A DNA stretch of 43,416 nt from Gammaproteobacteria bacterium (lineage in GTDB: Bacteria > Pseudomonadota > Gammaproteobacteria > Arenicellales > CAJQKF01). Positions within the stretch are counted from its first letter, which is position 1. Every line of letters starts with the position of its first letter. Below the pieces are notes generated by a model, which ran no database searches, was not told the DNA's origin, and saw only the letters and a program-made list of their open reading frames with translations. The stretch is taken from the NCBI GenBank assembly GCA_030429125.1, contig JAUIDF010000001.1:1-43416 (forward strand), read 5' to 3'. This document shows, piece by piece, positions 17,871-43,293 of the stretch. The translations under genes and the position numbers were made by a program.

Positions 17871-17875
17871 GCGCG

Positions 17876-23810: not shown

Positions 23811-23875
23811 GATCCCGGGTCACGGACGATGCCACTGGGTGATCGACCGTAGCGAATATCGAGGACGCTCAAGAC

Positions 23876-24613: not shown

Positions 24614-25467
24614 GCCGCGTTCGATCCGTGTTCGTCGGCGTACCGGTACGACCGGTACATTGTTCTGAGCTTCTCGTTGAGCCCGTTCAGCCGTTTCCAC
24701 TTCAGGAAGGCCTCGGTGTCGGGTTTGTGGTTGCTGAAATGGAGCAGGCGCACCTCGTCGAGGTCGAGCCGGAGCGATTCGTCGCCCAGCAGCGGTGTCT
24801 GGCAGTTGAACCGGTAGTCGCGCGAGTACGGTATACCGCGCAACAGGCACCACAGCGAGATGACGCTCTGGTCGGCGTAGGCGAGGTACGGCCCGTAACG
24901 CATGGTCAGGCGTTCGATCAGGGCGTGTTCTTCGCTGTTGCGAAAGCGTCGCGGAAGAACGAAAACGCCGGCATTGGCCATGTCGTCCATGTCATGCGGG
25001 TAGTCGAGCCCGTCCTCGCGAAGCAGGGCATGCAGGTCGGCGTCCTCGCTGGCGCCTTCGACGAAGACTCGCGTCGTCGGCCACGGTTCGTGGTTGGCGA
25101 TGATGAAGAACCCAGGGCTTGATATGATCTCATCCAGGGAGCCGAGAACGAGAGTGTCGACATCCAGGTGCAGCAGGTTGTCGTAGTCATCGAAATAGTC
25201 CGTCCACAGGGAGAAGCGGTCGAAGACGATGGGGCTCTTGATTCGATTCGGGTCGATGGCGTCGTGCCGCGGCGGTCGGTCAGGCGAGATCCGGGTGATG
25301 CCGGTCCTGTCAAGGAATGCTTCGACGTCGGGTGAGTGTCCGTCATAGGCGACCAGCAGCGGGGGGTGTGCGGGATAGTTCCGCTTCAGGCTGTGATAGC
25401 AGGCGCGAAAGTAATCGAAGTACCGATCGTTGAAAAAGCTCACGATGGCGTGTCGGGGAGTTGCCAT
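24562..25467 (-). CDS. GT-A fold glycosyltransferase, GT8-like (DxD)
   Basis: 301-aa ORF: IVSFFNDRYFDYFRACYHSL, LLHLDVDTLVLGSL (DxD), ANAGVFVLPRRF, YADQSVISLW. The 3' end overlaps the convergent oxygenase gene by 52 nt. Confidence 0.7.
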   Translation of the reverse strand: MATPRHAIVSFFNDRYFDYFRACYHSLKRNYPAHPPLLVAYDGHSPDVEAFLDRTGITRISPDRPPRHDAIDPNRIKSPIVFDRFSLWTDYFDDYDNLLHLDVDTLVLGSLDEIISSPGFFIIANHEPWPTTRVFVEGASEDADLHALLREDGLDYPHDMDDMANAGVFVLPRRFRNSEEHALIERLTMRYGPYLAYADQSVISLWCLLRGIPYSRDYRFNCQTPLLGDESLRLDLDEVRLLHFSNHKPDTEAFLKWKRLNGLNEKLRTMYRSYRYADEHGSNAAQPEPKASPGRCLKIVQ

Positions 25468-25568
25468 TGCCGGGGGTCGCAGTCGGCGACGCGCGAGGTC
25501 GTCCCGGACCGTGCCGTTCGCGTCAGGTCATTGAAAACAAACAGTATCGCCGGATTCTAACATTGCCC

Positions 25569-26732: not shown

Positions 26733-26808
26733 TCGGGCTCGGTGCGCGGCGATGAATGGCCGGGCGCATTCACGGCGTGGCGGCGCCCGCCTTGGCCACG
26801 ACGGGCCG

Positions 26809-27669
26809 TCAGTAGAGCTTGTTCCAGCTTCGCCACTGCGCCGGGAATTCGCGCACCCAGGGTTCCGTCCGTTCGAGGAACTCGCCGGTGGCACGGCTTG
26901 CCTCGGTGTCCCGCCCGGCCCGCGAATCGATCGGCAGGGGCGGCAGGATTTCGACCCGAAAGCCCTCGTTGCCCGGCAGCCGGCAGCCGACCACGGGTAG
27001 CAGCGCCGCGCCGGTGCGATGGGCGATGGCCGGCGCGCCGTTGGCGAGTGCGACGCGCCGGCCCAGGATGCCGGCCTCGACGACGCGGCGCCCTTCCCAG
27101 GCGCCGGCGGTGATCGAAACGATGCCGTTGCGCGACAGCGCCTCAAGCAGTCGTTGCATGTACCCCAGGCTGTGGTCCCGGTCGATGACGATGCGTTCGG
27201 CAAGGAACGGGTCTTCGGCACGTACCCGGACGCGGTTGATGGTGCGGATACCGACACGCGTCTTGGAAAATCCATGCTCCGGACGACTGAGGTGAAGCAC
27301 GCGGTAGCCGTGTGCATGCAGCGCCATCTTGCCGACCAATCCGTTGTGAATGAAATGGGTCATCCACAGTATCGCGCCGCGGCCCCTCTCAAGCGCCGCG
27401 TCGAGGTGTTCGAGCCCACCCGTCGCGATGCGGGGGCGCTCGGCACCGACCTCCGGGGTGAGAACGGCCTTGACCACGGCGGCGTCTGGAAGTCGCTCCC
27501 ATGGTGCGACCCGCTTGTAAGCGGTGACGATTCGGCAAAAGCCCGGCCAGAATCGTTCCGGCAACAGCCAGGCGACCGGATACAGGCCGGCCAGGGCCAG
27601 GGCGAGCTTGAGATCCCGCAGTTCGAAAGTTTTCAAGTCCGGGACGCTCCTCGCGAGACCGTTGTCCAT
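26809..27669 (-). CDS. Lipid A biosynthesis (LpxL/HtrB-type) acyltransferase family protein, divergent
   Basis: 286 aa with an N-terminal TM segment LKLALALAGLYPVAWLL. The core is GRGAILWMTHFIHNG and the C-terminus is EFPAQWRSWNKLY, like the P-x-Q-W/Y-x-W tail of the family. The acidic residue of the canonical H-x4-D/E is not in the expected position (HFIHNG), so activity and substrate are uncertain. Confidence 0.6.
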   Translation of the reverse strand: MDNGLARSVPDLKTFELRDLKLALALAGLYPVAWLLPERFWPGFCRIVTAYKRVAPWERLPDAAVVKAVLTPEVGAERPRIATGGLEHLDAALERGRGAILWMTHFIHNGLVGKMALHAHGYRVLHLSRPEHGFSKTRVGIRTINRVRVRAEDPFLAERIVIDRDHSLGYMQRLLEALSRNGIVSITAGAWEGRRVVEAGILGRRVALANGAPAIAHRTGAALLPVVGCRLPGNEGFRVEILPPLPIDSRAGRDTEASRATGEFLERTEPWVREFPAQWRSWNKLY

Positions 27670-27797
27670 CCGGTGCGAATGCTGGTCCGCGCACCGGTTC
27701 GTCGCCGCCGTGCCGTCGATAGGTCGAGGACGAGTCGCGGTAGTATACTGGCATCGCCGCGAACGGCCTGCCCGACGACATCCGAAAGCGAATCATC

Positions 27798-28694
27798 TTG
27801 ACTGTCCCGACCATTGCATTGTTCGGCTGCGGCACCTGGGGTCGCGTCATTCTCGAGACTCTCGGGCGGCTGGACTGCCGCGTCATCGTGATCGATCCGG
27901 ATGGCGGCGCTGGCGCATGCGCGGATGCCCACGGTGCACCATGGCATCCGAGCGACTCTCCCCGACTGGGCTTCGACGCGGCGATCGTGGCGACGCCGGC
28001 GTCGACTCATTTCGACGTCGTATCGAAGCTGTGCGACCGGGGCGTTCCGCTGTTCGTGGAAAAGCCGTTTACCCTCTCCGGCACCGATGCCCGCGCGCTC
28101 GTGGACCGGGCAGGCGAGCGATTGTTTCCCCTGCATGTGTGGCGTTATCACCCGGGGATCGTTGCCATGGCGTCGTTGGCGACGCGCGGCGATTTCGGCG
28201 CCGTCAAGGGTGTGCGCACGTTCAGAACCAACTGGACGAGCCCACGTACCGATGTCGGCGCCGAGTGGACCCTGCTTCCCCATGACCTGACGATCTGCCT
28301 CGCTCTTCTTGGAAGGATTCCGGAGCTTCGACATGCCGTCGCCGAGCGTTCGCCGGGTGGCGTCAACGGCGTCCTGGCATGTTATGGTTCCGAACCTTGG
28401 TTTGTCGCCGACGTGTCGAACCGGTACGAGGGCAAGAACCGACAGGTCAGGTTGCACCTGGAATCGGCGGTCGTCGTACTCGAACATGGAGAGGCCGAAG
28501 GGCTTCGGATTCTGCGCGGCAACGAACGCTCACCGGCGATCGATACGATACCCATCGATACGACGCCCGCGCTTGAAGTCGAGTTAAGGGCCTGCCTCGA
28601 CTACCTGGCCGGTGGTGAGCGGCCGACCTGTGGCGCCGAAGAGGGCCTGGAGATCGTCAGGCAGGTTGAAATGATCAGGACATACATTGGATAA
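27798..28694 (+). CDS. Gfo/Idh/MocA-family NAD(P)-dependent sugar oxidoreductase
   Basis: TTG 27798; 298 aa. Rossmann motif IALFGCGTWGRVIL, ATPASTHFD, and the EKP motif in LFVEKPFT. Confidence 0.8.
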   Translation: MTVPTIALFGCGTWGRVILETLGRLDCRVIVIDPDGGAGACADAHGAPWHPSDSPRLGFDAAIVATPASTHFDVVSKLCDRGVPLFVEKPFTLSGTDARALVDRAGERLFPLHVWRYHPGIVAMASLATRGDFGAVKGVRTFRTNWTSPRTDVGAEWTLLPHDLTICLALLGRIPELRHAVAERSPGGVNGVLACYGSEPWFVADVSNRYEGKNRQVRLHLESAVVVLEHGEAEGLRILRGNERSPAIDTIPIDTTPALEVELRACLDYLAGGERPTCGAEEGLEIVRQVEMIRTYIG

Positions 28695-29292
28695 CCCCGT
28701 CATCGTCCCGCGCGAGGCGGCAACCGCGCATCTGGTTCACGGCAGCGTGCTGGCCGGTGTCAACACGGTCGCTCTCGTGCCGCATCGCGATCGCCGCGGG
28801 AGTTTCACCGAGATCTACAACGCGTCGTTCGAGCCGTTTCTGGCGCCGTCGCAGTGGAGCGTGGTGCGGTCGCGGCGCGACACGTTGCGCGGCATGCACG
28901 TTCACCTGCGGCACGACGAGTACTTCCATCTGCTCGACGGCCACGTGTTCGTGGGCCTGCACGACGTCAGGCCGGGCTCGCCGACGCAGGGACTGTCGAG
29001 TCTCTACGAGTTCGGTGCAGACACCGACGTCAGCCTCGTTTTTCCTCGCGGCCTGCTGCACGGCTGGCTGTTCACCCGGGATTCGGTCCACATCCAGGCG
29101 ACGTCGGAAGACTACGACGATTATCGCGACGACGACAATTTCGGCTGCGCGTGGAACGACCCGGCGCTCGACCTGCCGTGGCCCTCGACGCCGAACCGGG
29201 TCTCTTCGCGCGCCCGCGGGTTTCCGCGCCTCGCCGAATTGCTGGCCGACATCGACAGACGCACGCCGGGCTTTCGTTATGGCGAATCCTGA
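28687..29292 (+). CDS. dTDP-4-dehydrorhamnose 3,5-epimerase-like cupin (RmlC family)
   Basis: TTG 28687 overlaps the upstream stop by 8 nt. Motifs are HRDRRGSFTEIY, LRGMHVHL and FPRGLLHGW. Confidence 0.75.
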   Translation: MDNPVIVPREAATAHLVHGSVLAGVNTVALVPHRDRRGSFTEIYNASFEPFLAPSQWSVVRSRRDTLRGMHVHLRHDEYFHLLDGHVFVGLHDVRPGSPTQGLSSLYEFGADTDVSLVFPRGLLHGWLFTRDSVHIQATSEDYDDYRDDDNFGCAWNDPALDLPWPSTPNRVSSRARGFPRLAELLADIDRRTPGFRYGES

Positions 29293-29767
29293 TACGGTTC
29301 GTCTTGTGGACGCAAAGCCGTCGGCAACGGTTCGCCGCGATCGCCAGATCGTGGTGCCGGTGCAGGACGGACTCCGCGTCGTGGTGTTCCTGAAGTCGCA
29401 GGGCGAGTCGTCGTTCGTCGGCTTCGCCGTGGATGCGTCCGGTGTCGAGCTCCTGAAGTTCGATTGCAGCGGGGTGCTTGCGAACCTGCACGGGCACTAT
29501 CATCTCGGCGTCACCTACGATGGCCACCCGGCGTATTCGAAGCGGTTCGAGTTTCCGGAAGGGGATCCCGGCCGCCAGATCGCCTTCGCCGTGCATTTCT
29601 ATCGTCACCACCTGGCGATGGTCATCGGGCTGCATCATGCCGAGGCGATCAGGTGCATGCGGCTCGACGCCGGCCTCGTTGCAGACTCGTGCGAACGCAT
29701 CGGCGAGGCCTTGACGGCGCTGCTGCCGTCGGTCACGCCCGACTGCTTCCCATCCGCGCCCGCCTGA
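29279..29767 (+). CDS. Hypothetical protein (162 aa)
   Basis: ATG 29279 within track ORF 28757..29767, overlapping the RmlC-like gene end by 14 nt. The composition is protein-like (MANPDTVRLVDAKPSATV...HGHYHLGVTYDGHPAYSKRFEF). I recognise no family. Confidence 0.5.
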   Translation: MANPDTVRLVDAKPSATVRRDRQIVVPVQDGLRVVVFLKSQGESSFVGFAVDASGVELLKFDCSGVLANLHGHYHLGVTYDGHPAYSKRFEFPEGDPGRQIAFAVHFYRHHLAMVIGLHHAEAIRCMRLDAGLVADSCERIGEALTALLPSVTPDCFPSAPA

Positions 29768-29841
29768 TCGCCGCTGCAACCGGGACGGACGCGGACCTGC
29801 GCGCCGTGCCCCGACGCGCTGGCGTCACGCTGAGGGCTCGT

Positions 29842-30720
29842 TCAACCGGCGCGATCCCGGTCGGCTTCGTGCAGCAGACGGGTGAGGTGGTGCGACGAAC
29901 GCGCAAAGTGCCAGGCCATGACGCGAAACGCGAGTTCGGTTCGGCGTGGAATCCAGGTTTCGTCGGTGGCCCGACCGATCCACCTGGACAGCGCCTCGCC
30001 CTGGGCGGCGAGATCGCGATGCCACAGTGAGGTCGGGAAGTAGATCACGGTAGGCTGCACCGTCGATGCCATCCTCATGCGCCCGCTCGACCACAGTTTG
30101 CGCCACATGTAGTGATCCGTGGGCCAGCCGGGCGGCGTCGTGTCCCAGTGCGCGCCCGATTGCAGGTAGGCCTCGCGGGCGTGTGCTGCCGCACTCAGGG
30201 GAATGCCCCGCACGTGTTCCCCGCGTTCGTACGATGGTGGATAGGGATCGGCCTGGCACCAGAGATCACGGATTTCGTTCTCGTCGGCCGCGTGCCGGCC
30301 CAGCACCAGCGGCGGCTGGCAGTTCACGACATCGTCGTGGCCGATTACGAGCACCATCGAGTGCGCGAAATCGCAGCGCTGAAGCGTGGTACGCAGCGTC
30401 TGGAGGTGATCGACGCACCACAGGTCGCGGTCACAGATGTAGGCGATGTGACGACCCGTGGCGCGGGTCGCGATCAGGTCGTGCCGGTGCGGCTCGCCGC
30501 GCTGGACGTGCTTGGCGAACCCGATGAACCGCACGCGCTCGTCGTTCGCTGAAAACCGGTCCACCACGGCGCGCGTTTCCTGTCCGGCGCCGTCGCCGAC
30601 GACGAACAGCTCGAAGTCAGCCAGGGTCTGGGACAGGACGCTGCGGATGGCATGGCCGATCACGGGCGCCTTGTCGCCCGTGGTCGGCATGATCACGGTG
30701 AACTCTCGTTTCTCACTCAT
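29842..30720 (-). CDS. Family 2 glycosyltransferase
   Basis: 292 aa: FTVIMPTTGDKAPVIGHAIRSVLSQTLADFELFVVGDGAGQET, YICDRDLW (DxD-like). Confidence 0.75.
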   Translation of the reverse strand: MSEKREFTVIMPTTGDKAPVIGHAIRSVLSQTLADFELFVVGDGAGQETRAVVDRFSANDERVRFIGFAKHVQRGEPHRHDLIATRATGRHIAYICDRDLWCVDHLQTLRTTLQRCDFAHSMVLVIGHDDVVNCQPPLVLGRHAADENEIRDLWCQADPYPPSYERGEHVRGIPLSAAAHAREAYLQSGAHWDTTPPGWPTDHYMWRKLWSSGRMRMASTVQPTVIYFPTSLWHRDLAAQGEALSRWIGRATDETWIPRRTELAFRVMAWHFARSSHHLTRLLHEADRDRAG

Positions 30721-30786
30721 ATCGCATCGCCTGGTGCGGACAGTTCGTCGGTGTCGGCCGCTTCCCGGGCCGGCAAAGGGACCGGG

Positions 30787-31794
30787 CTAGTTCCCGGCTT
30801 CGAGCGGCGGCTCGTCCATGGCGGCCGCCTGTTCGCGCAGGTCGAGGATGTGCTGTTGCCACGCGCGCTGGGTATTGAACCAGGGGAAGGCGCGGGGGAA
30901 CGCGGGATCGCTCCAGCGTCGAGCCAGCCACGCGTTGTAGTGCAGCAGCCTCAGCGTGCGAAGCGCTTCCACCAGGTGCAGTTGGCGCATCGGGAACTCG
31001 CAGAAATCCGTGTACCCGGTGAGCAGGGCGTCGAGGGCCGCGGTGCGGTCGGCGCGATCGCCCGACAGCAGCATCCACAGGTCCTGTATCGCCGGCGCCA
31101 TGCGCGCGTCGTCGAGGTCGACGAGGTGCGGTCCGGCTTCGGTCCACAGGATGTTGCCGATGTGCATGTCGCCGTGGGTGCGGATCAGCTGCACGTCGCC
31201 GGCGCGTTCGTAACACCACCGGACCCGTTGCAGCAGGTCCTCGGCGAGCGTGCGATAGGGCGTTTCGAGCTCCGGCGGCAGCAGCGGGCAGGCGAGCACG
31301 AAGCGGCAGGCATCGTCCCCGAAGCTGGCTGCGTCCAGGGTCGGTCGGTGGTCGAACGCGCGCACCGCGCCGACGGCGTGCAGGCGGCCGATGAAGCGGC
31401 CGATGATCTCCAGCTGATCGAGGTCGTCGGGCTCGGGCGCGCGCCCGCCGGCGCGTGGGAACAGGGCGAACCGGTACGCCGCGTGCCGACGGAGCGTGAC
31501 GCCGTCCCCGTCGGCCAGCGGGGCCACCACCGGTACCTCGGCATCGGCGAGTTCTTGCGAAAAGGCGTGCTCCTCGACGATGGCGTCGTCGCTCCAGCGG
31601 TGAGGCCGATAGAACTTGGCGATGATCGGCGGAGCCTCCTCGAGGCCGACCTGGTAGACGCGATTCTCGTAGCTGTTCAGCGCCAGCAGGCGGCCGTCGC
31701 ACCGCCAGCCGGCACTCTCCACGGCGTCCAGGACCTGGTCGGGGCCGAGGTCACGATAGCGCAGGGACTCGTCGTCGTTGTCGGGTGAATGCAT
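30787..31794 (-). CDS. srkA: Stress response kinase A (YihE/RdoA family Ser/Thr kinase)
   Basis: ATG 31794 (MHSPDNDD...) inside track ORF 30787..31926. Hallmark motifs are LALNSYENRVYQV, IAKFYRP, IRTHGDMHIGNILW and VDLDDARMAPAIQDLWML. Confidence 0.9.
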   Translation of the reverse strand: MHSPDNDDESLRYRDLGPDQVLDAVESAGWRCDGRLLALNSYENRVYQVGLEEAPPIIAKFYRPHRWSDDAIVEEHAFSQELADAEVPVVAPLADGDGVTLRRHAAYRFALFPRAGGRAPEPDDLDQLEIIGRFIGRLHAVGAVRAFDHRPTLDAASFGDDACRFVLACPLLPPELETPYRTLAEDLLQRVRWCYERAGDVQLIRTHGDMHIGNILWTEAGPHLVDLDDARMAPAIQDLWMLLSGDRADRTAALDALLTGYTDFCEFPMRQLHLVEALRTLRLLHYNAWLARRWSDPAFPRAFPWFNTQRAWQQHILDLREQAAAMDEPPLEAGN

Positions 31795-31913
31795 GCGTGG
31801 ATTATCCCACGATGCGTGGCCGCGAGGCGGGCGATATCCGCTTAAAGCGGTTAAAGTAGCGGGCGCGGCGCGAACGCCGCGACACGCAACAGAATACCGA
31901 CAGAATACACAGC

Positions 31914-34157
31914 ATGCCGCATTCAAAGTACCTGCCCGAACGCATGGGCACCGCCGTCGTATCTCCGCGAGGCCGCTTCGAGGCCGGCGCCTACCAGTCC
32001 TTCGAGCTGACCTATACCGCGGGGTATTTCGGCATCGACGATACCGGCTCGATCAAGGTGGTGCATCGATTCGCCAGCGACATGGGGCGCCCGCAGTTCG
32101 ACGATCCGGCGGCGCCCAACTACGTCTCCGCCGAGGCCAGCAATGGCGCCGTGCTGCATCTGGAATACGACATGAAGCGCAACATCCGTCCATGGGACAA
32201 GACGCTGTACATCAAGGTCGTGAGGGGCTTCCTGCGCGAGGGGGACACTATCACCGTGCGCTTCGGCGACCCGCGCGGCGGCTCGCCGGGCATGCGTTTG
32301 CAGACCTTCTGCGAGGACACGTTCGAGTTCCGCGTACTGGTCGATGCCATCGCCACCTACAACTACGTCGAACTCCCGGTTCAGCCCGAGATCGCCATCG
32401 TGCCCGGGCCGCCGACGCTGTACAAGGCAATCCTGCCAACGGCGCGCGAGGTGGGCGAGGTATTCCGGCTGTGCCTGAAGGGCGAGGACCGCTGGGGCAA
32501 TCCGTCGGACCGTTGCGACGAATCGTTCGCCCTGGTCGCCAGCCGCCCGATGCAGGGGCTGCCGGCGCGCGTGACCTTTTCGCCGGGCGAGTTCTCGGTG
32601 ATCGTCGAGGGCCTGTCCGTCGACGAACCCGGCGACGTGCACATCGAGTTGCGCGCGGATGATGGCACGGTGCGTGCACGGTCCAATCCGCTGCGCATCG
32701 AGGCGTCGATGGATCTCAAGCCCTACTGGGGCGACCTGCACGGGCAGTCCGAGGAGACCATCGGCACGAATTCGGCGCGGGACTTCCATCGCTTCGCCCG
32801 CGACCGCGCCTTCCTCGACGCCGTCGGCCACCAGGGCAACGACTTTCAGATCACGACGCCGTTCTGGCATCACCTCAACGAGCTGTCGCGCGAGTTCAGC
32901 GTGGATGGTTCGTTCGTCGTCTTTCCCGGCTACGAATGGTCGGGCAACACCGGACTCGGCGGCGATCGCAACGTGCTGTACCGCCACGAGGGCCGGCAGA
33001 TCCATCGCTCATCTCATGCATTGGTGGACGACCTGTCCGACATCGATACCGACGCCAATTCGGCCGAGGCCCTGTTCCATGCCCTGAAGAACGAGGACTG
33101 CGTCGTATTCGCCCACATCGGCGGGCGCTATGCCGACATCAATATCGCCCACGACATCCGCCTGGAGCGCGCGGTGGAGGTGCATTCGGCGTGGGGCACG
33201 TTCGAGTGGCTCATCCACGATGCCTTCAGGCAGGGCTACCGGGTCGGCATCGTCTCCAACTCCGACGGCCACAAGGGACGCCCCGGCGCCAGTCATCCCG
33301 GGGCTACCAAGTTCGGCGCCTACGGCGGGCTGACCTGCATGCTGGCCGGGACGTTCAGCCGCGACGGCCTGCTCGACTCATTGCGTCGTCGCCACCACTA
33401 CGGCACTACCGGCTGCCGCATGGTGCTCGATACGCGCGTGGACTTCGATGCGGCCGCGACGATCTTCGACGACGATCCGCTGCTGGGCGACACGGCGAGC
33501 CGGCAGGCGTCGTCGGCGATGATGGGGGACATCTGCCGCAGCGCGGACGAGGCGGTGACCTTCAGTATCGATGTACATGGCTCGGCGCCGATCGAACGCA
33601 TCGAGATACGCAACGGTCTCGAGGTGCTCGAAACGCTGCGGCCCTACGTCGACGCGGATCTCGGACGGCGCATTCGCGTGATCTGGGAAGGCTCGGAGTA
33701 TCGCGGACGTGGCCGCGAAACCACCTGGGACGGCAGCGCGACGCTCCAGGGCAACACCTTCGAGCGGCTCGCGCCGATCAACCGCTACAACCTCGACAAG
33801 CGCTTCGAGCAGACCGCGCCCGGCGTCGTCCAGTGGCAGGCGTTGACCACCGGCGGCTTTGGCGGTTTCGACGCGTGGCTCGCCGATCCCGAGGCCGGTG
33901 AGCTCGAGATCGATACCGCCCTGGTCAGGACGCGAATCGATATCGCCGACATCGGCCGCGACGATCTCGTCTTCGAGGCCGGCGGTATCGCCCGCCGGAT
34001 TCGCGTGTTTCGCCTACCCGACGACAATCCTCACCGGGTGCTCACCGCTCGCCGGCGCGTGACACTGCGCGACGACGGCGACAATGCGTTCTACGTGTGC
34101 GTCACCCAGGAGGACGGCCACCTCGCCTGGTCGAGTCCGATTTACGTTTTTCGCTGA
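31914..34157 (+). CDS. DUF3604-like metal-dependent (PHP-like) hydrolase family protein
   Basis: 747-aa ORF. It has an N-terminal beta-rich region, then YWGDLHGQSEETIGTNS, GYEWSGNTGLGGDRNV, VFAHIGGRYA, EVHSAWGTFEWL and SNSDGHKGRPG, a pattern of His/Asp ligands as in DUF3604/PHP proteins. Family assignment is from memory. Confidence 0.7.
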   Translation: MPHSKYLPERMGTAVVSPRGRFEAGAYQSFELTYTAGYFGIDDTGSIKVVHRFASDMGRPQFDDPAAPNYVSAEASNGAVLHLEYDMKRNIRPWDKTLYIKVVRGFLREGDTITVRFGDPRGGSPGMRLQTFCEDTFEFRVLVDAIATYNYVELPVQPEIAIVPGPPTLYKAILPTAREVGEVFRLCLKGEDRWGNPSDRCDESFALVASRPMQGLPARVTFSPGEFSVIVEGLSVDEPGDVHIELRADDGTVRARSNPLRIEASMDLKPYWGDLHGQSEETIGTNSARDFHRFARDRAFLDAVGHQGNDFQITTPFWHHLNELSREFSVDGSFVVFPGYEWSGNTGLGGDRNVLYRHEGRQIHRSSHALVDDLSDIDTDANSAEALFHALKNEDCVVFAHIGGRYADINIAHDIRLERAVEVHSAWGTFEWLIHDAFRQGYRVGIVSNSDGHKGRPGASHPGATKFGAYGGLTCMLAGTFSRDGLLDSLRRRHHYGTTGCRMVLDTRVDFDAAATIFDDDPLLGDTASRQASSAMMGDICRSADEAVTFSIDVHGSAPIERIEIRNGLEVLETLRPYVDADLGRRIRVIWEGSEYRGRGRETTWDGSATLQGNTFERLAPINRYNLDKRFEQTAPGVVQWQALTTGGFGGFDAWLADPEAGELEIDTALVRTRIDIADIGRDDLVFEAGGIARRIRVFRLPDDNPHRVLTARRRVTLRDDGDNAFYVCVTQEDGHLAWSSPIYVFR

Positions 34158-34171: not shown

Positions 34172-36703
34172 TCAGTAGCCCAGCAGGGGCGGCGCCTCGG
34201 GCAGGTAGCGGGAGCGGTTCGCCTCGGACAGTGGCGCCGGCACCAGTGCGTCGGCGTGCTGGCGCAGCGTGAGGCCCGTCGGCGCGAGGTCGAGGATCGC
34301 GATCCCGGCGCCGTCGCGCGTCGCCAGCCGACGACCGTCCGGTGACAGCGCGCCGCCCGGCAGGACCGCAACGGCGACCGGTTCGCCGCTCTCGGTGTCC
34401 CAGACGCGCGTGGCGTCGGCGCTGGTGACGAAGCGTGTGCCATCGGCGTTGAAGGCCGCGCGCACGATACCATGGTGGCCCGGCAGTTCGTGGATCGGCT
34501 CACCCGTTCTCGCGTCCCACAGGATGACGCGATTGTCGTCGAGGCCGGTGCTGAAGTCGGCGAACTCGGTGGTCAGCAGGTGGCGGCCGTCGGGACTGTA
34601 TTCGACCGAGCCGGCGTCGCGCCGGTGCCCTGGCAGTGTCAGCACGAGGGCGCCGTCGAGGGTCCAGACGCGTGCGGTACCGTCCGCCGAGCGGGTGGCG
34701 ACGCGGCGGCCGAACGGTGCGAAGGCGGCGCCCGTCACCCGGCCTTCATGACCGGAAAGCTCGAACAGGGCGGCGCCAGTCTCCATGTCGAAGCCGCGCG
34801 CGGAACCGTCGGCATAGCCGAGCAGCAGTCGCGCGCCGTCGGCATCGAAACGCATGGCCGTCACGCCCGGTTTTCGCGACGACAATGCGTGCCGCAGGTC
34901 GCCGGTCACGACATCGCGCACGTCGACCCCCTTCGACGTGCGAACCGCGACATGACGCCCGGACGGGTCGAGTACGGCGGCAGTGGCCGGGCCGTCTTCG
35001 TCTTCGAACGCCTGCAGGAACTCGCCGCTGCGCGCATCCCAGGTGCGCGGCGCGTCACCGGCCGCAAGCGTCAATACGCGGCTTCCGTCGGCGGCGACCT
35101 GGAAGCGATCCGGTTGATAACCGGGGGCGTCCAGTCGGCGCCGCTCGACGCCGCGACCAAGGTCCCAAAGCCGGACCGAATGGGTCGTGAGGGCGTCTGT
35201 GATGCTGAAGCGGTCGAGGCTGAACAACTCGTCGCGGTCCCGGCCGAAGGCAAGCTGCGCCGTGCTGTCGAAGATGCCTTCGAGGCGTATTGGCCGTGTC
35301 TGCAGGTCATGGACACGAACGCCGTCACCGCCCACGATCAGCAGCTTCTCGCCCGAGGCGTCGAACGACAGACCGTCCACGTGGTGACCGCTACCGGGCA
35401 GGGTATACATGACCCGGCCGTCGCGCGAGTCCACGACCACGGCGTCGCTGCCCTGGTCCAGGGCGAGTCGTCGCCCGTCGGGTGCGAATGCACCGTGGTT
35501 GACGGGCAGTTCCAGGTACAGCGGTACCGGGCGCGAGGTGCGGGCGTCGAACAGCCGCGCGCCGCCGTCGCCGAAAAACGCGAGCAGTCGGTCCGCGTCC
35601 GAACTGACGATGGCATTGGCGAAGCGCAGGCCGCGCGGTGCGTGAAACTCGCGCCGCGTACCGCCGAGGGGGTCGACGAGCTCGAGCACGCCGTCGCCGG
35701 ACAGGCTGACGACCGGTCCCGCGCTTGCCGGCGCCGGGCGCGCCTGCGTCGCCAGCGACTTCACACCGCCACCCTCGACGGGGACCGGGTAGGCGGCGAC
35801 TGCCTCGGTCAAACGCGCCTGGGCGGCGACGTTCATGCGACGATCCAGTTCGGCGCGTGCGGAAATCGGCACGCCGAGAAGCGCCTCCAGTCGCCGCGTG
35901 AAGCGTCCGAGGTCGAGCGCCTGGATGTCACCGAGCGCCGTGCGGGCCAGTTGTACGGCCAGCGCGTGATGTCCTTCGCGAGTGCGCTCGTATGACGCGT
36001 CGAGCGTGGCGATGGTGCGGGCAAACAGGCGCTGCTGTTGCTGCTGCTCGAACAGGAACAGGCTGCCGCCCGCGACCAACAGCAGCAGGGCCGATGCAGC
36101 GGCGACAACGGCTCGTCGCGCGCGCCGACGCCGTCGCTCGCGTTGCCGCAGGCTGTCGTATCTCACGCCGAGAATTCCGCTGATGAGTTTAAGCCGCGCC
36201 GCCGCACGGCCGTCACCGTTCGCTCGCGCGTCGGCGGCGATGGGCTCCGTGCGCTCGCTGGTCACGGCACGATTCCCGTCGACCCGGTAGCGAATCGCCT
36301 CGGGAAAGCACTCCAGCGCCGGGTCGTCCCTGTCCGTGGCATTGGGTTCGCCGGCGACGATCAGGCACAGCACCCGGTCGGCCCGGCCCATGGCCTTGAA
36401 TGACTTGATCTCCTCGTTGACCCACAACGAACCCGCGGCGTCGGGTGAGCAGATCACGATCAGGCAGGCGGACTGCGACAGCGCCCGGGAAATATTCTCG
36501 GTCAGATCGGACGCCGTCGGCAGCTCTTCGCGGTCACGGAATATCGGTGTCAGGCGGCGCGGTACGGGACCGTCACGCCCCTGGGTGTCGACCAGTCGCC
36601 GCGGTACGCGGTAGTTCTCGAGCGTTTTGTGCAGCCACTCGCCCCAGCGGCGATCCCGGTGGCTGTAGCTGATGAAGGCACGGTAACCAAACGCCTCGGC
36701 CAC
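34172..36703 (-). CDS. TIR domain - single transmembrane helix - WD40 beta-propeller protein
   Basis: GTG 36703; 843 aa. The TIR region is YRAFISYSHRDRRWGEWL...PIFRDREELP...LIVICSPDAAGSLWVNEEIKSF, with the conserved Glu in WVNEE. RQRERRRRRARR is followed by the hydrophobic AVVAAASALLLLVAGGSLFLF (nt ~36050-36112). Multiple canonical WD40 units follow, e.g. LSGHEGRVTGAAFAPFGRRVATRSADGTARVWTL and LPGHHGIVRAAFNADGTRFVTSADATRVWD. Confidence 0.9.
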   Translation of the reverse strand: MAEAFGYRAFISYSHRDRRWGEWLHKTLENYRVPRRLVDTQGRDGPVPRRLTPIFRDREELPTASDLTENISRALSQSACLIVICSPDAAGSLWVNEEIKSFKAMGRADRVLCLIVAGEPNATDRDDPALECFPEAIRYRVDGNRAVTSERTEPIAADARANGDGRAAARLKLISGILGVRYDSLRQRERRRRRARRAVVAAASALLLLVAGGSLFLFEQQQQQRLFARTIATLDASYERTREGHHALAVQLARTALGDIQALDLGRFTRRLEALLGVPISARAELDRRMNVAAQARLTEAVAAYPVPVEGGGVKSLATQARPAPASAGPVVSLSGDGVLELVDPLGGTRREFHAPRGLRFANAIVSSDADRLLAFFGDGGARLFDARTSRPVPLYLELPVNHGAFAPDGRRLALDQGSDAVVVDSRDGRVMYTLPGSGHHVDGLSFDASGEKLLIVGGDGVRVHDLQTRPIRLEGIFDSTAQLAFGRDRDELFSLDRFSITDALTTHSVRLWDLGRGVERRRLDAPGYQPDRFQVAADGSRVLTLAAGDAPRTWDARSGEFLQAFEDEDGPATAAVLDPSGRHVAVRTSKGVDVRDVVTGDLRHALSSRKPGVTAMRFDADGARLLLGYADGSARGFDMETGAALFELSGHEGRVTGAAFAPFGRRVATRSADGTARVWTLDGALVLTLPGHRRDAGSVEYSPDGRHLLTTEFADFSTGLDDNRVILWDARTGEPIHELPGHHGIVRAAFNADGTRFVTSADATRVWDTESGEPVAVAVLPGGALSPDGRRLATRDGAGIAILDLAPTGLTLRQHADALVPAPLSEANRSRYLPEAPPLLGY

Positions 36704-36751: not shown

Positions 36752-37579
36752 CTATTCGGACTCCAGGCTCTTGATGATGTAACCGCCGGACTTCTCGTCG
36801 TGTTGCAGGGTCAGCAGCTTGCGGTTCTCGGCTTCTTCGAGCAGTTGACCGAAGGTGCGAAAGCCGTGGTAGGTCTCGTCGAAGCCCGGCTTGCGCCGCT
36901 TAAGCGCCTGCTTGACCATCGATCCCCAGACCTTCTCCTGTTCGCCGCGCTCCTTGAGCAGGGCCTCGATCGTCTCGATGACCAGGTCGAGCCCTTCCTG
37001 CTTCTTGTCTTCCTCGCCGTTCCCGGACGCCTTCTTGCTGGCCTTCTTCGACGTCGCCTTGCGCTTTGCCGGCTTCTTGCGCTTCTCCGATTCGCGCACC
37101 AGGTCGTCGTAGAAAATAAACTCGTCGCAGTTCGCGATGAGCAGGTCCGAGGTGGCGTTCTTCACTCCCACCCCGATGACAATGCGATCGTTCTCCCGGA
37201 GCTTGCTGACCAGCGGCGAGAAATCGGAGTCGCCCGACAGGATGACGAACGTGTCCACGTGGGACTTCGTGTAGCAAAGGTCCAGCGCGTCGACCACCAT
37301 GCGGATATCGGCCGAGTTCTTGCCCGACAGGCGCACGTGCGGTATCTCGATCATCTCGAAGGCCGCCTCGTGCATGGCCTGCTTGAACTCCTTGTAACGA
37401 TCCCAGTCGCAGTAGGCCTTCTTCACCACGATGGAACCCTTGAGCAGCAGCCTCTCGAGTACCTTCTGGATCTCGAAGGCCGAGTACTTGGCGTCGCGCA
37501 CGCCGAGCGCCATGTTCTCGAAGTCGCAGAACAGGGCCATGTTGCGGGTTTCGGATCGTTCGTTCATGTGGTCGAGCAT
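36752..37579 (-). CDS. NYN (LabA/PIN-like) domain protein with Lys-rich linker and C-terminal OST-HTH/LOTUS domain
   Basis: NYN core: MALFCDFENMALGVRD...VDALDLCYTKSHVDTFVILSGDSDFSPLVSKLRENDRIVIGVG. Linker: KRKKPAKRKATSKKASKKAS. LOTUS-like region: VWGSMVKQALKRRKPGFDETYHGFRTFGQLLEEA. The start is ambiguous (ATG 37600, 37579 or 37567). It lies 48 nt upstream of the TIR gene on the same strand. Confidence 0.85.
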   Translation of the reverse strand: MLDHMNERSETRNMALFCDFENMALGVRDAKYSAFEIQKVLERLLLKGSIVVKKAYCDWDRYKEFKQAMHEAAFEMIEIPHVRLSGKNSADIRMVVDALDLCYTKSHVDTFVILSGDSDFSPLVSKLRENDRIVIGVGVKNATSDLLIANCDEFIFYDDLVRESEKRKKPAKRKATSKKASKKASGNGEEDKKQEGLDLVIETIEALLKERGEQEKVWGSMVKQALKRRKPGFDETYHGFRTFGQLLEEAENRKLLTLQHDEKSGGYIIKSLESE

Positions 37580-37716
37580 GCCCCGTGGCGGTTGAATCAT
37601 GCCGACACAATAGGCATCCGGCGTCCAAGTTGCAATGACCCGCGCGCGTCGCGGGCCTTGCCGGGTTGTGTAATACTGGCGCGAGCCGCACCCGGCGTTC
37701 ACCGACGGAGGATCTC

Positions 37717-40308: not shown

Positions 40309-40671
40309 ATGAAGCTACCGAGACGGCAGATAGTGGCCGGCGCCTGTCTTTTGGCGCTCGGCGGGTTCTCTTCGTCGGCTTTCTCGCAGTCGGTCGACGA
40401 GTTGTTCGACGGTGCGTGGCGCTACCAGGCGTCCTGTGCCGGCTGTCATGACAGTGACGGATCCGGCATCTATCCGTTCGGGCCACCGCTCAAGGGCAAT
40501 GCATTCGTTCAGAATGCACCGGTTCCGATCGTCGTACAGGTTATCCAGAACGGTCGCAACTACGGTGAGAGAAATCATCTCGCCTACGTTGGCATGCCGG
40601 CGTTTCACTACATACGCGGCGGTGAAGCGATAGCGCTGGTCAACTACATGAAGAACGGCCTGCAAAACTGA
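40309..40671 (+). CDS. Periplasmic monoheme class I c-type cytochrome
   Basis: ATG 40309 with GGAGGAG 9 nt upstream; 120 aa. Signal peptide is MKLPRRQIVAGACLLALGGFSSSAFS. The heme motif is CAGCH (nt 40435-40449), with a probable distal Met in YVGMPAF. Confidence 0.85.
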   Translation: MKLPRRQIVAGACLLALGGFSSSAFSQSVDELFDGAWRYQASCAGCHDSDGSGIYPFGPPLKGNAFVQNAPVPIVVQVIQNGRNYGERNHLAYVGMPAFHYIRGGEAIALVNYMKNGLQN

Positions 40672-40731
40672 CGACTAGTGCCCGACACGTATTGTCTTGG
40701 CGATTCGGGTTCACTAAGTAGGAGAGCAATA

Positions 40732-42174
40732 ATGCGAAGATTGACTGCAACCCTTGCAATGGTTACCGGCACGCTGGCTATGCTGGCGGTCACATTGCCA
40801 CAGGACGCTCATGCCGTCGCGGGATTCTCCCGGCAGACCGGCATGACGTGTAACATGTGCCATACCCTGCATGGCGCACCGACTCCCAACTTCACCTTTA
40901 CCGGCAAGAAGTTCAACGCCCTCGGTTATCGTCTGCCTGGCGGCTTCAAGAACAGCATGTCCGACTCCCAGGAACAGGGCAAGCCGGAGGACAAGGGTGA
41001 ATACTTCAAGCTGCTGCCGACGTCGACCAGTGCGCGTTTTCAGTACCAGATCGCCAATACCAGCGAACCGCCGGGCGCGGACAGCTTCGGTCCCGTCATT
41101 ACCAACCCGACGTCCCGCTTGGCGTTCTTCCCCTTTACCGGGCCGGTCGGCGACCACTTCGGCATCTGGACCGAGTTCTACATTACGCCATTCACCAGCG
41201 AAGACAATGAATGGGGTATTGCGGATACTTCGTACGAAGAGTTCGACTTCCGTTACGTATTCGATACCGATGACGACTCGACGTTTACCGGTCTTGCGAT
41301 AAGCAACCAGGGTGTTGCTTCGCTCTTCGGATTCAGTCCCTTTCCCGGACTGCCCAGTGAAATCGGGCGCGGCGGCGTAGGCGGATATTCGCATCCCAAC
41401 TGGGGAGGGCTGTATGCCTATGGTTGGCGTGATGACCGCTGGGTCTGGGGCGTCGGCGCGGAGACCGGTGATACCAACTACGATTGGGACGACAGCAATA
41501 TCGCCGGCGTGATCGGCTATGCGGCGCGTAACCGAAACGACGACGAGCTGTGGTACAACCTGTACTTCCGTACCGGCGACGATGCATTGCCGATGGTCAC
41601 GTCGAGTGGCGCGCAGGCTTCTTCTCGTTCGTGGCAGTATCGGGACGCCGTCGGCGGTGTCAGTGCGACGAGAACCATGGGCGGCGCCTGTCCGGGCGTC
41701 AGCGGACGCCGGGTATCGGGCAGCTGCGCCTACCTGGCCGAGGAACTCGACGATCACACGTCCATCGATCTCGAGATACGCCGGGGTGGTCAGAACGTCG
41801 ACAAGTTCTTCGGTGAGAAAGCCGCGGGACCGTGGAGTTTCGAGTACGTCGCCAGGTTGAGCCTCAACGACGAGGACTACAACGACGGCGCCAGCGCCGA
41901 GCGCAACTCCTGGGGCTTTGAGACCGTGATCGGTTACAAGCACACCCACTACTTCAAGCCCGCGATCTATGGCGACTTCGATTTCGAGTTCACCGACAGC
42001 TCGGGCGTGAAGCACGACATCGACACGAAGCTCAGCTGGTCGCTGCGCTACGCGTACAAGGCGACGGAGAACTTCCTGCTGTACGCCCAGTACGCAAACA
42101 GTCAGCGCAATTCACTCGACGGGAAGGCGCTGACCGGGAAGTCGTTCTCGATCACCGCCGATATCTCCTTCTAG
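40732..42174 (+). CDS. cyc2: Cyc2-like fused monoheme cytochrome c / outer-membrane porin (candidate Fe(II) oxidase)
   Basis: ATG 40732 with GGAGAG 5 nt upstream; 480 aa. The signal peptide ends in AHA. A single CNMCH heme motif (nt 40849-40863) lies within ~15 residues of the mature N-terminus, in FSRQTGMTCNMCHTLHG. The remaining ~430 aa are rich in Gly/Tyr/Asp/aromatic alternation and end in ITADISF, the terminal Phe typical of OM beta-barrels. A strong terminator follows. Confidence 0.65.
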   Translation: MRRLTATLAMVTGTLAMLAVTLPQDAHAVAGFSRQTGMTCNMCHTLHGAPTPNFTFTGKKFNALGYRLPGGFKNSMSDSQEQGKPEDKGEYFKLLPTSTSARFQYQIANTSEPPGADSFGPVITNPTSRLAFFPFTGPVGDHFGIWTEFYITPFTSEDNEWGIADTSYEEFDFRYVFDTDDDSTFTGLAISNQGVASLFGFSPFPGLPSEIGRGGVGGYSHPNWGGLYAYGWRDDRWVWGVGAETGDTNYDWDDSNIAGVIGYAARNRNDDELWYNLYFRTGDDALPMVTSSGAQASSRSWQYRDAVGGVSATRTMGGACPGVSGRRVSGSCAYLAEELDDHTSIDLEIRRGGQNVDKFFGEKAAGPWSFEYVARLSLNDEDYNDGASAERNSWGFETVIGYKHTHYFKPAIYGDFDFEFTDSSGVKHDIDTKLSWSLRYAYKATENFLLYAQYANSQRNSLDGKALTGKSFSITADISF

Positions 42175-42212
42175 GGATGTCGGAACCGTCAACGTAGCCT
42201 ATCGCTACTGGT

Positions 42213-42248
42213 GGTCGACCGCCGGCAGGGCCGGCGGTCGACCTTTTT
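42213..42248 (+). terminator. Rho-independent terminator: 14-bp perfect GC-rich stem, 3-nt loop, T5 tract
   Basis: GGTCGACCGCCGGC (42213-42226), loop AGG, GCCGGCGGTCGACC (42230-42243), then TTTTT (42244-42248). It starts 39 nt after the Cyc2-like stop. Confidence 0.85.
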
Positions 42249-42308
42249 CCAGGCAATCGGAGAATTCATCACCTCTCCGATCCACCCAGATCCCAAGGAC
42301 TCCCGACA

Positions 42309-42635
42309 ATGTTCGATTCTCTTGAAATGTCCCGGCGCCGGATGTTCCGGTTCGGTTTGTACGCGATCTCCGCCGCCGGCGTCGCGATGGGCCTGTCGCC
42401 GCGACGAGTTAAGGCGCAGGACCTTCCGCAGCTCTCCGAGGATGATGCGACCGCCAAGGAACTGCAATACGTGCACGACGGTACGGCCTCGGCGCGAACC
42501 GACGCCTCGCAGGAGTGTGCCAATTGCACTTACTACAAGGGCGGCGCAGGCGATGCATGGGCGCGCTGCGACCTGTTTCCCGGCAAGGTGGTCAACGGTA
42601 AGGGTTGGTGCAAGGTTTGGACGGCGAAATCCTAG
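42309..42635 (+). CDS. High-potential iron-sulfur protein (HiPIP), Tat-exported
   Basis: 108 aa. Twin-arginine signal MSRRRMFRFGLYAISAAGVAMG. The C-terminal region is QECANCTYYKGGAGDAWARCDLFPGKVVNGKGWCKVWTAKS, with the four-Cys HiPIP pattern and GWCxxW. Confidence 0.9.
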   Translation: MFDSLEMSRRRMFRFGLYAISAAGVAMGLSPRRVKAQDLPQLSEDDATAKELQYVHDGTASARTDASQECANCTYYKGGAGDAWARCDLFPGKVVNGKGWCKVWTAKS

Positions 42636-42708
42636 TGTACGATCCCGGTCGGCCGCACAGTCTCGTGCGGTCGATTTCGGCCGCATTCGCCTCGGGAGGA
42701 TGATTTGC

Positions 42709-43293
42709 ATGGTTCGCCGACCTGGCAGGTCGCCGGCAATCTCGCTGGCGTTTCTCTTCATTTCACTGCCGCTTGCCCAGCCGGCCGTATCCGCGGAGTG
42801 CCGCTACGACGACGCGGGATTTACCGCCGGCGCAGTCCTTTGCCAGGCCGGGTTGCGGATGCAGTGCCAGTCGGTCGACGACGACGGGCCGCAATGGGTC
42901 TCGTTGAATCAGTCGTGTTCGACCGGGGCGCCTTCGGTGAGCGAAACCGGTGGCGACGTCGAACGGGACGATCCGGCGCCGGCAATCGTCGAGGACTCGA
43001 CCGCCGCGCTCGAATCGACAACCACTGAACCGGTGGAGAGTGCCGAAGTCGGTATCACGGTTCACTGGGCGGAATATGGCCGCGACGGGCTGAACTGCGA
43101 CGCGGTTGCGGAGGTGCGCGCGCATTGCGCCGAGCGCACCGGGTGTTCGCTGGACGTGGTGCCTGAGAATCTCTGTGGCGACTCGAACCCGGAGCGGCCG
43201 AACCTGCTCACCGTGTTCTGGTCCTGCGGCGATCTGCTGCGCAATCCCGCCTATGCCCAGGACGGAACCCGGCTCGAACTGGACTGCTCCTGA
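42709..43293 (+). CDS. Secreted Cys-rich protein; C-terminal domain resembles SUEL/rhamnose-binding (Gal_Lectin) fold
   Basis: ATG 42709 with GGGAGGA 8 nt upstream, inside track ORF 42211..43293. Signal peptide is MVRRPGRSPAISLAFLFISLPLAQPAVSA. An acidic linker follows. Then comes ITVHWAEYGRDGLNCDAVAEVRAHCAERTGCSLDVVPENLCGDSNPERPNLLTVFWSCG, similar to the A-x-YGR...C...C-x-G...C...GDPC...L-x-V-x-Y-x-C pattern. The lectin call is tentative. Confidence 0.55.
   Translation: MVRRPGRSPAISLAFLFISLPLAQPAVSAECRYDDAGFTAGAVLCQAGLRMQCQSVDDDGPQWVSLNQSCSTGAPSVSETGGDVERDDPAPAIVEDSTAALESTTTEPVESAEVGITVHWAEYGRDGLNCDAVAEVRAHCAERTGCSLDVVPENLCGDSNPERPNLLTVFWSCGDLLRNPAYAQDGTRLELDCS

Follow-up and report, generated by a model that had tools for sequence, protein, structure and literature searches.

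To our knowledge, every bacterial TIR system that has been characterised detects its trigger in the cytoplasm. In a 2024 survey of E. coli TIR defence systems, membrane features like those of Toll-like receptors (TLRs) seemed to be absent from bacterial TIR systems (PMC11350192). In Planctomycetota, membrane Ser/Thr kinases are common in which a cytoplasmic kinase is followed by one transmembrane (TM) helix and by arrays of WD40 or TPR repeats with a predicted periplasmic location (PMC11032199). Here we examined a gammaproteobacterial gene which unites a TIR domain, a single TM helix and WD40 repeats in one chain. It is located at 34172..36703 (minus strand) in a stretch of 43,416 nucleotides, contig JAUIDF010000001.1 of assembly GCA_030429125.1, which was analysed as a whole and is called the window below. 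The product has 843 residues. With a probability of roughly 0.55 we read it as a single-pass inner-membrane receptor, in which a cytoplasmic TIR domain with an extension is connected by one helix to a periplasmic stalk, a linker and a tandem WD40-type propeller. If a periplasmic sensor is indeed coupled in this way to a TIR enzyme on the other side of the membrane, TIR signalling would also cover envelope surveillance, and the protein would be an independently arisen functional parallel to Toll-like receptors.

The reading frame starts with a GTG at 36703 and ends with a stop codon at 34172-34174. The gene was supported by the list of open reading frames (ORFs), by gene calling from the GC content of third codon positions (GC3), by a 100% self-match and by a 77% identical ortholog (P0002), with which the GTG start agreed. 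GC3 of 0.82 and a GC content of second codon positions (GC2) of 0.53 matched those of real genes nearby; window GC was 62-72%.

Architecture and predicted topology of the protein

The TIR core comprises aa 1-120 (36344..36703, minus strand). Pfam TIR_2 (PF13676) matched at aa 10-119 with 50.0 bits (cut-off 28) and ThsB_TIR (PF08937) with 40.3 bits (cut-off 21.2). Invariant columns, an alignment with the plant L6 and ROQ1 TIRs and an AlphaFold2 (AF2) model (predicted local distance difference test, pLDDT, 90-97 in the core) agreed with this assignment. The AF2 model was based on an alignment of 88 sequences and had a pLDDT of 82; single-sequence AlphaFold gave 37 and was not used. Core motifs are FISYSHRD (aa 10-17), FRDREEL (aa 55-61) and SLWVNEEI (aa 92-99). 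The protein begins MAEAFGYRAFISYSH, the TIR domain starts at residue 7 and an N-terminal signal peptide is absent. An earlier interpretation, made by a model from the DNA letters (the original prediction), had proposed a leaderless N-terminal TIR followed by WD40 repeats. The leaderless TIR was confirmed, and both Pfam families named for a check, TIR_2 and WD40, scored above their cut-offs.

Among the 88 aligned homologs E98 is invariant, alongside S92, W94 and V95, and E97 is kept in 77. Thus, the catalytic-type Glu which had been noted in SLWVNEEI is indeed retained, yet it is E98 and not E97 as numbered originally. With SRWVNEEI placed over both plant sequences, E98 aligned at the second-Glu position of SKWCLMEL (L6) and STWCLEEL (ROQ1), which is known to be the catalytic Glu of these TIRs. 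In a profile search of solved structures the best matches of the TIR module were the TIR of TLR2 (E 2.5e-5) and the plant L6, AtTIR and ROQ1 TIRs. Judged by its S-x-W-x-x-x-E motif the domain is likely of the catalytic type and would cleave NAD+. The TIR profile also matched, weakly, an 824-aa 'Tetratricopeptide repeat protein' in PDB entries 9m0n and 9umd (E 0.0016, chain residues 44-103). 9m0n was rejected as a solved relative of the family, as a TPR-type family member found no PDB match.

The TIR core continues into a family-specific extension (aa 121-181; 36161..36343, minus strand), which was delimited by its conservation and a pLDDT of 87-95 and is covered by no Pfam model. E131, E153, D158 and R160 are invariant, and C132, F133, P154, A156 and A157 are at least 90% conserved; ECFP and EPIAADAR stand out as motifs. 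AF2 modelled the extension as three short strands and a helix which form one confident unit with the TIR, and residues 1-180 are compact with a pLDDT mostly above 90.

A juxtamembrane helix and a transmembrane helix follow (aa 182-218; 36050..36160, minus strand), YDSLRQRERRRRRARR and then AVVAAASALLLLVAGGSLFLF, as assigned by hydropathy, flank charges, homologs and AF2. AVVAAASALLLLVAGGSLFLF (aa 198-218, 21 residues) is the sole strongly hydrophobic segment of the protein with a Kyte-Doolittle (KD) value of 2.36; the next peak, 1.2, is within the TIR core. It is preceded by the Arg-rich RQRERRRRRARR and followed by EQQQQQ, in accord with the Arg-rich run, the 21-residue hydrophobic helix and the Gln run described originally. 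The 15-residue flanks contain nine Lys/Arg before and two after the helix. The juxtamembrane segment was said to look conserved, and it is: K172, G176, V180 and D183 reach a conservation of at least 90%, and R188 never varies among the 88 homologs. In the AF2 model aa 182-242 form an uninterrupted helix, which runs through the juxtamembrane motif, the Arg cluster and the apolar segment and on beyond the latter.

These features are general in the family. About 100 of the 120 best homologs have a hydrophobic 19-mer (KD > 1.6) near residue 200, which is preceded by the conserved motif (F/Y)D(E/D)LKQR(D/E)..RR..RR. The membrane helix is present throughout complete homologs, and all of 55 further TIR-bearing representatives at 50% identity carry it as well. 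For topology statistics 164 members with a locatable juxtamembrane motif were used. The mean KD of the apolar segment was 2.1, and the 15-residue flanks averaged 6.2 Lys/Arg on the N side vs 2.9 on the C side. The N side was richer in 160 members, equal in four and poorer in none. A second hydrophobic segment was detected in one member only.

Taken together, this computation supports well the prediction of a single-pass inner-membrane protein with an N-in/C-out orientation, i.e. a cytoplasmic TIR and a periplasmic C-terminal part, as had been proposed from the positive-inside rule. Because there is a single span, the TIR and the C-terminal half should be on opposite faces of the membrane. The TIR should be inside because it is leaderless and Arg-flanked and its substrate NAD+ is cytoplasmic. 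The topology is further supported by a diderm host and by PEGA, FG-GAP and PQQ_2 domains beyond the helix in sister members. PEGA, FG-GAP and PQQ_2/BamB-like domains are envelope or surface domains. Since a lipid A acyltransferase family protein and a c-type cytochrome are both encoded in the window, the host is diderm and has a periplasm.

The part beyond the membrane has four segments, all on the minus strand. A predicted extracytoplasmic helical stalk (aa 219-305; 35789..36049) opens with EQQQQQ and continues as a helical bundle (AF2 helices 182-242, 246-262, 265-276 and 281-304). A disordered linker (aa 306-330; 35714..35788) has a pLDDT of 23-38 and a family conservation of 6%. The WD40-like beta-propeller region (aa 331-808; 34280..35713) was assigned by Pfam WD40 and propeller models, AF2 strands from 331 to 805 and Foldseek. 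Finally, a disordered C-terminal tail (aa 809-843; 34175..34279; pLDDT <30) is 86% identical in the ortholog and unconserved family-wide.

In the propeller region Pfam WD40 (PF00400) scored 76.7 bits (cut-off 27) and many propeller models matched over aa ~507-777. The AF2 model contains about 12 four-stranded blades between aa 331 and 805, which most likely form two propellers. The first Foldseek matches in the PDB were tandem double propellers (2ymu, Pwp2 and Apaf-1, with E down to 8e-29). Canonical WD40 repeats are located in the region's C-terminal half and the remaining blades are degenerate. The ectodomain has four GH and four WD dipeptides, three WD40 stretches pass Pfam on their own, and three to four repeats are of the canonical GH...WD type. 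Originally, about 600 residues with many canonical repeats had been claimed. WD40 repeats are present, but only three to four are canonical, and the propeller part is about 480 residues long; about 100 residues after the TM helix are modelled as helical stalk, then disordered linker. The top viral fold match was BFVD A0A2P0VP16, a 'TIR/WD40 domain-containing protein' of the giant algal Tetraselmis virus 1 (E 8.5e-21, 11% identity). This match indicates that combinations of TIR and WD40 exist in giant viruses, too.

A constant N-terminal module with interchangeable ectodomains

A search of 5.8 billion proteins returned 2544 matches at E ≤ 1e-5. Most of the best 120 of these covered at least 90% of the query and were 733-1427 residues long. 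The same TIR-TM-WD40 arrangement recurs in thousands of homologs, which excludes a chance origin of the architecture. Homologs with a name are annotated as 'TIR domain-containing protein' or 'WD40 repeat protein'. The sequences themselves are already in the databases in thousands of copies under such generic names; new is the recognition of a conserved TIR-juxtamembrane-TM module with interchangeable ectodomains.

The conservation is unevenly distributed along the chain. Mean identity to the query over 86 homologs was highest in the TIR core (63%) and fell over the extension (52%) and the juxtamembrane and TM segment (34%) to 10% for the stalk and 6% for the linker; the propellers reached 22%. 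A constant output combined with variable sensors is the pattern which would be expected of a receptor family. The N-terminal module alone (first 195 residues) had a mean column identity of 60% across phyla. The 88 aligned sequences have an overall identity of about 30%, and invariant among them are Y7, S12, Y13, S14, D17, W23, E29, F55, D57, E60, C85, S86, P87, S92, W94, V95, E98, G118, P120, E131, E153, D158, R160 and R188.

A GTDB scan with one genome per species identified the N-terminal module in at least 574 species; nearly all of those listed belong to diderm (Gram-negative) phyla. Carriers among the matches listed included Verrucomicrobiota, Planctomycetota, Acidobacteriota (Pyrinomonadaceae, Blastocatellia), Gammaproteobacteria (Rhodanobacter, Dyella, Lysobacter, Steroidobacteraceae) and Alphaproteobacteria (Rhizomicrobium, Mesorhizobium, Phenylobacterium, Xanthobacteraceae), with an enrichment of free-living soil and water bacteria with large genomes. 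Cultured carriers are Rhizomicrobium electricum, Mesorhizobium escarrei, Dyella and Rhodanobacter. Because the family is large, modular and present in cultured bacteria, a receptor hypothesis can be tested directly. A profile search with the N-terminal module gave at least 3019 protein clusters at E ≤ 1e-20; most were fragments from short contigs, so the number is a lower bound on family size and tells little about architecture. In a search of representatives with the full-length query, WD40 matches dominated (249,970 proteins at E ≤ 0.001), and its use was limited to the co-occurrence of TIR and TM.

Across 80 genome loci, designated by L numbers, the TIR-juxtamembrane-TM module was constant and the remainder of the chain varied. 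According to Pfam the ectodomains consist of WD40 arrays in L061, L076 and L082, of TPR_12/TPR_10 arrays in L020, L037, L047 and L054, and of PEGA, FG-GAP and PQQ_2 domains in L022. A type from Pyrinomonadaceae/Blastocatellia of about 630 residues (e.g. L014:4823-6709:+) has the same TIR-TM module and an ectodomain of about 400 residues without a Pfam match. Short forms with little ectodomain occur on long contigs as well. One module fused to WD40, TPR, PEGA+FG-GAP+PQQ_2 or an unassigned fold strengthens the single-chain sensor-effector logic of the original prediction, which is now well supported by computation.

Genomic neighbourhoods of the gene and its relatives

The TIR-TM-WD40 gene is preceded, on the same strand, by a gene for an NYN (LabA-like) domain protein (36752..37702, minus strand; Pfam NYN 122 bits; ortholog 96% identical in the relative). 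The gap from this gene to the start of the TIR gene is 48 nt, and the two are possibly co-transcribed. On the other side a gene coding for a 747-aa protein with a partial DUF3604 match only (31914-34157, plus strand; 90% conserved in the relative) is convergent, the stop codons being 14 nt apart. Further away, one flank contains a long glycosyltransferase/polysaccharide cluster with an APH-family kinase, the other a MetE-like gene and a Crp-family regulator. Around the TIR gene the promoter and terminator scans did not exceed chance.

The gene order is the same in a related contig, L001, which carries the sole close relative. There, the receptor is 77% identical, the immediate flanks 84-96% and the polysaccharide genes 68-77%. 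Accordingly, the receptor evolves faster than its immediate neighbours, and its pace is similar to that of the polysaccharide genes. NYN was considered as a functional partner throughout the family and rejected, as its adjacency was seen only in L001 and did not recur among 82 loci.

The original prediction had suggested an anti-phage or abortive-infection device. At the locus this is unsupported: the neighbours are a polysaccharide cluster and APH, DUF3604, NYN and MetE-like genes, syntenic in the relative. More distant WD40-type relatives have neighbourhoods unlike that of the window and housekeeping in look. The 123 neighbours pooled from 21 WD40-type loci belong to diverse Pfam families (ABC transporters, luciferase-like oxygenases, CTP synthase, ClpB, MlaE, sulfatases), and PADLOC matches among them were scattered and generic, of ATPase type. 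Some loci adjoin OLD/GajA/AriA-like ATPases. The survey of homologs for defence islands that had been called for thus ended with mostly housekeeping genes. Because of these housekeeping-like neighbours, the scattered PADLOC matches and the lack of phage or viral relatives (see below), the WD40 subfamily cannot be assigned to defence islands. In PADLOC the protein itself had no match above threshold; a weak partial SAVED_TIR match (E 4e-6) covered only aa 53-117 of the TIR part, and the ThsB match had an E of 0.043.

The neighbourhoods of the sister subfamilies look different. Neighbours were clustered for 82 family loci. A membrane protein of about 600 residues recurs in 25 of them, always beside members of 716-828 residues (one truncated at a contig end), of which those tested were of the TPR type. 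These loci include L013, L017, L019, L020, L024, L039, L041, L042, L044, L045, L050, L053-L055, L060, L067, L070, L071 (L071:8165-9967:+), L073, L081, L083, L085 and L086. The neighbour has an N-terminal VAVTGHRD...EGAD and several TM segments, and its matches to SLOG (YAcAr) and SLATT_3/SLATT_6/DUF4231 were consistent, though sub-threshold. SLOG-SLATT proteins are predicted to be nucleotide-sensing membrane effectors in a paper on conflict systems (PMC7159879). Judged by these matches, the neighbour may be an effector partner of this kind.

In 14 of the 82 loci, proteins which combine RyR, TPR-S (MAP3K_TRAF_bd-like) and an adenylate/guanylate cyclase adjoin family genes. Mostly they are encoded directly downstream of Pyrinomonadaceae-type members (e.g. 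L014:6669-9014:+), and they are also found beside the WD40-type members of L009 (L009:7746-9962:+), L031 (L031:5339-7618:-) and L084 (L084:6720-8534:-); ten further loci complete the set. Tandem paralogs exist, too: in ten loci 11 neighbouring ORFs carry the same TIR N-terminal motifs. Rhizomicrobium electricum DSM 21034 (L021:10001-20534) has three tandem TIR-TM-WD40 genes for 958, 971 and 970 residues, with one copy more divergent, and a 557-aa RyR-domain protein is encoded between the second and third; as a cultured strain it lends itself to genetic work. The sister-subfamily neighbours hint at a TIR which makes a nucleotide signal in a multi-component network. Relatives of the SLOG/SLATT-like and the RyR-TPR-S-cyclase proteins are encoded neither in the window nor in the syntenic contig.

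A few other features of the window were observed. The surface-polysaccharide-type cluster extends over 13132-31926 and contains several GT2, GT4 and GT8 glycosyltransferases, the lipid A acyltransferase family protein, the APH-family kinase, a dTDP-sugar isomerase-like protein, a GFO/IDH oxidoreductase and a 2OG-Fe(II) oxygenase. In L001 the cluster is 68-77% identical and its gene content is partly different, with methyltransferases there. An unusual companion inside the glycosyltransferase cluster is a 798-aa ORF with a papain-family (Peptidase_C1) domain (15474-17870, plus strand). A very long ORF of 1443 residues (6505-10836, plus strand) has a coding-type GC3 of 0.87. Two ORFs of 498 residues (40678-42174, plus strand) and 360 residues (42211-43293, plus strand) remained without a Pfam match at E ≤ 0.001; directly upstream of them is a small c-type cytochrome gene (40309-40671).

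Possible roles and comparison with known systems

How might a protein of this design operate? The propellers would bind a ligand, probably multivalent, which is periplasmic or derived from the envelope, and ligand binding would cluster the receptors. TIR domains would thereby meet at the membrane's inner face, and the assembled TIRs would cleave NAD+, resulting in NAD+ depletion or in a signal derived from ADP-ribose. The TIR NADases of SARM1, plant resistosomes and TIR-STING filaments are switched on by self-association. Because the disordered linker separates the propellers from the stalk, a rigid piston-type coupling seems unlikely and clustering more plausible. Alternatively, the ligand might trigger a regulated proteolytic release of the TIR. 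Such release-type activation is suggested by Dictyostelium TirC, in which removal of the membrane tether unleashes toxicity (PMC13142454).

Several findings weigh against a membrane receptor of this kind or against an immune function. The N-in/C-out call is based on hydropathy and flank charge only. FSPDG-type WD40 and TPR_12/TPR_10 repeats are familiar chiefly from STAND proteins of the cytoplasm, and a periplasmic location of such repeats is unusual. The disordered linker, which argues against rigid conformational coupling, leaves the activation step speculative. A shared neighbour or conserved partner was not detected among the 21 WD40-type loci, and a defence-island context was found neither there nor at the window locus. 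No relatives were found in IMG/VR viral contigs or GenBank phages. Plasmid relatives were limited to nine distant matches, almost all on megaplasmids or chromids, and the WD40 subfamily was not seen on mobile plasmids; a phage or plasmid origin was rejected for these reasons. The conservation of the TIR module is unusually high, which is atypical of fast-evolving defence effectors and would fit a conserved regulatory role. Lastly, all SLOG and SLATT matches of the ~600-aa neighbour were below Pfam thresholds, and this protein had no match in PADLOC and none in the PDB by a profile search of solved structures.

The topology could be questioned altogether. Possibly the hydrophobic segment is, for example, a peripheral anchor or a helix for oligomerisation, and the protein would be cytoplasmic throughout, a STAND-less TIR-WD40 sensor of intracellular ligands. 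The kinship of its repeats with those of cytoplasmic bacterial STAND proteins would fit, and AF2 places the segment within one long helix, which by itself does not prove membrane insertion. We nevertheless regard a cytoplasmic location as quite improbable. An apolar stretch of 21 residues with a KD of 2.1-2.4 is found at the same place in essentially every member, a conserved Arg/Lys cluster precedes it, the charge bias is never reversed, and envelope-type domains follow the helix in sister members. Moreover, the helix sequence is poorly conserved while its hydrophobicity is kept; therefore, it behaves as a membrane anchor and not as a specific interface. If the protein is a membrane receptor, as we prefer to read it, the question is what it serves. 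Anti-phage or envelope surveillance and non-immune periplasmic sensing carry similar weight, and each taken singly is a tentative proposal. In an abortive-infection device the propeller would detect a phage component at adsorption or injection, such as a tail tip or an ejected protein, or damage of the envelope, and the TIR would deplete NAD+ and kill or arrest the cell. An invariant catalytic-type Glu, the weak likeness to defence models for ThsB and SAVED-TIR, the exchange of sensors and the tandem arrays of paralogs, both also seen in families of immune receptors, and an evolution faster than that of flanking genes are all compatible with such a device. So are the OLD/GajA/AriA-like, RyR-TPR-S-cyclase or SLOG/SLATT-like neighbours at some loci and the surface-polysaccharide cluster next to the window gene. 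Opposed to it are the lack of a defence-island context at the window locus and at most WD40-type loci, of any PADLOC match above threshold and of relatives in viral or phage collections, the near absence from plasmids, the stable synteny with housekeeping genes and a TIR module that is very strongly conserved across phyla.

A non-immune receptor for envelope or environmental signals is an equally tentative proposal. Its TIR would make a nucleotide second messenger or act as a scaffold, and envelope stress, surface polysaccharide, cell-cell contact or predation might be regulated. Neighbourhoods are chromosomal, syntenic and housekeeping-like, the output module is highly conserved, carriers are enriched in free-living soil and water bacteria with large genomes, and the recurrent linkage to cyclase-containing RyR-TPR-S proteins suggests a second-messenger network. 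Topology and sensor repeats are the same as in the Ser/Thr kinase-TM-WD40/TPR proteins (PMC11032199). On the other hand, an invariant catalytic Glu points to the cleavage of NAD+, a reaction whose output in characterised bacterial systems is defence or toxicity, and the WD40 subfamily is without a conserved downstream partner. We know of no TIR domain in housekeeping bacterial signalling; with a non-immune receptor, a catalytic TIR would for the first time have a housekeeping role in bacteria. A more far-reaching idea, to which we attach somewhat less belief than to either of these, is that the family corresponds, in bacteria, to the transmembrane pattern-recognition receptors. Interchangeable periplasmic sensors on a constant TIR enzyme in the cytoplasm would detect invaders or damage in the envelope before the cytoplasm is reached, and in some lineages it might signal via an NAD-derived messenger to SLOG/SLATT-like effectors or RyR-TPR-S-cyclase partners. 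It would then be the first bacterial TIR immune pathway with sensing outside the cytoplasm, and TLR-like logic would have been invented independently.

The literature searches retrieved neither a description nor a functional characterisation of the TIR-TM-WD40 architecture, in line with the original prediction. It is unmentioned in the available sections of the Aravind-group papers on conflict systems (PMC7159879, PMC8195603) and of a 2020 TIR survey (PMC7075850). With Toll-like and IL-1 receptors the protein shares a repeat-built, predicted extracytoplasmic sensor, a single pass and a cytoplasmic TIR, and the best profile match was the TIR of TLR2. It differs in that the TIR is N-terminal (type II, N-in) and not C-terminal (type I), in that the sensor is a WD40 propeller and not built from LRR or Ig domains, and in the invariant catalytic-type Glu, whereas the TIRs of TLRs are scaffolds. 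By profile and fold it belongs to the TIR superfamily and to the WD40 proteins, and it is not a member of the Toll-like receptor family; the resemblance is one of logic, without a sign of common descent of the whole architecture.

Thoeris ThsB, the CBASS proteins TIR-SAVED and TIR-STING, and TIR-STAND proteins have in common with it the ThsB_TIR/TIR_2 match and the conserved catalytic Glu motif, and TIR-STAND-WD40/TPR proteins also combine sensor repeats with a TIR. Yet those proteins are cytoplasmic, and the window protein has a TM helix where STAND proteins have an NTPase. Among the window neighbours there is no ThsA-like gene (SIR2-SLOG or Macro-TM), and no SAVED, STING or CD-NTase domain was found in the protein or in these neighbours. 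Likewise, no NTPase model of Pfam matched, and AF2 filled aa 121-330 with the extension, the TM helix, the helical bundle and the linker. The protein thus lacks what defines Thoeris, the TIR effectors of CBASS and the STAND/NLR-like proteins. SARM1, plant TIR-NLR resistosomes and TIR-STING filaments have the same S-x-W-x-x-x-E catalytic motif; they are activated by cytoplasmic ligands and by NTPase or cyclic-nucleotide sensors, while oligomerisation of the window protein is a proposal. Dictyostelium TirC is alike in that a TIR NADase is held at the membrane by a single helix. In TirC, a eukaryotic protein derived from TIR-STING, this helix is N-terminal and an ectodomain sensor is absent. Most similar are the kinase-TM-WD40/TPR proteins of Planctomycetota and Myxobacteria and the PknD-type kinase-TM-propeller sensors, which have an N-terminal cytoplasmic output domain, one TM helix and a C-terminal array predicted to be periplasmic (PMC11032199), and in which WD40 and TPR sensors alternate just as in the present family. 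Their output is a kinase and not a TIR, and the family described here has a juxtamembrane motif and a TIR extension of its own. Hence, the closest architectural analogue of the TIR-TM-WD40 protein is this kinase class, with a different output domain.

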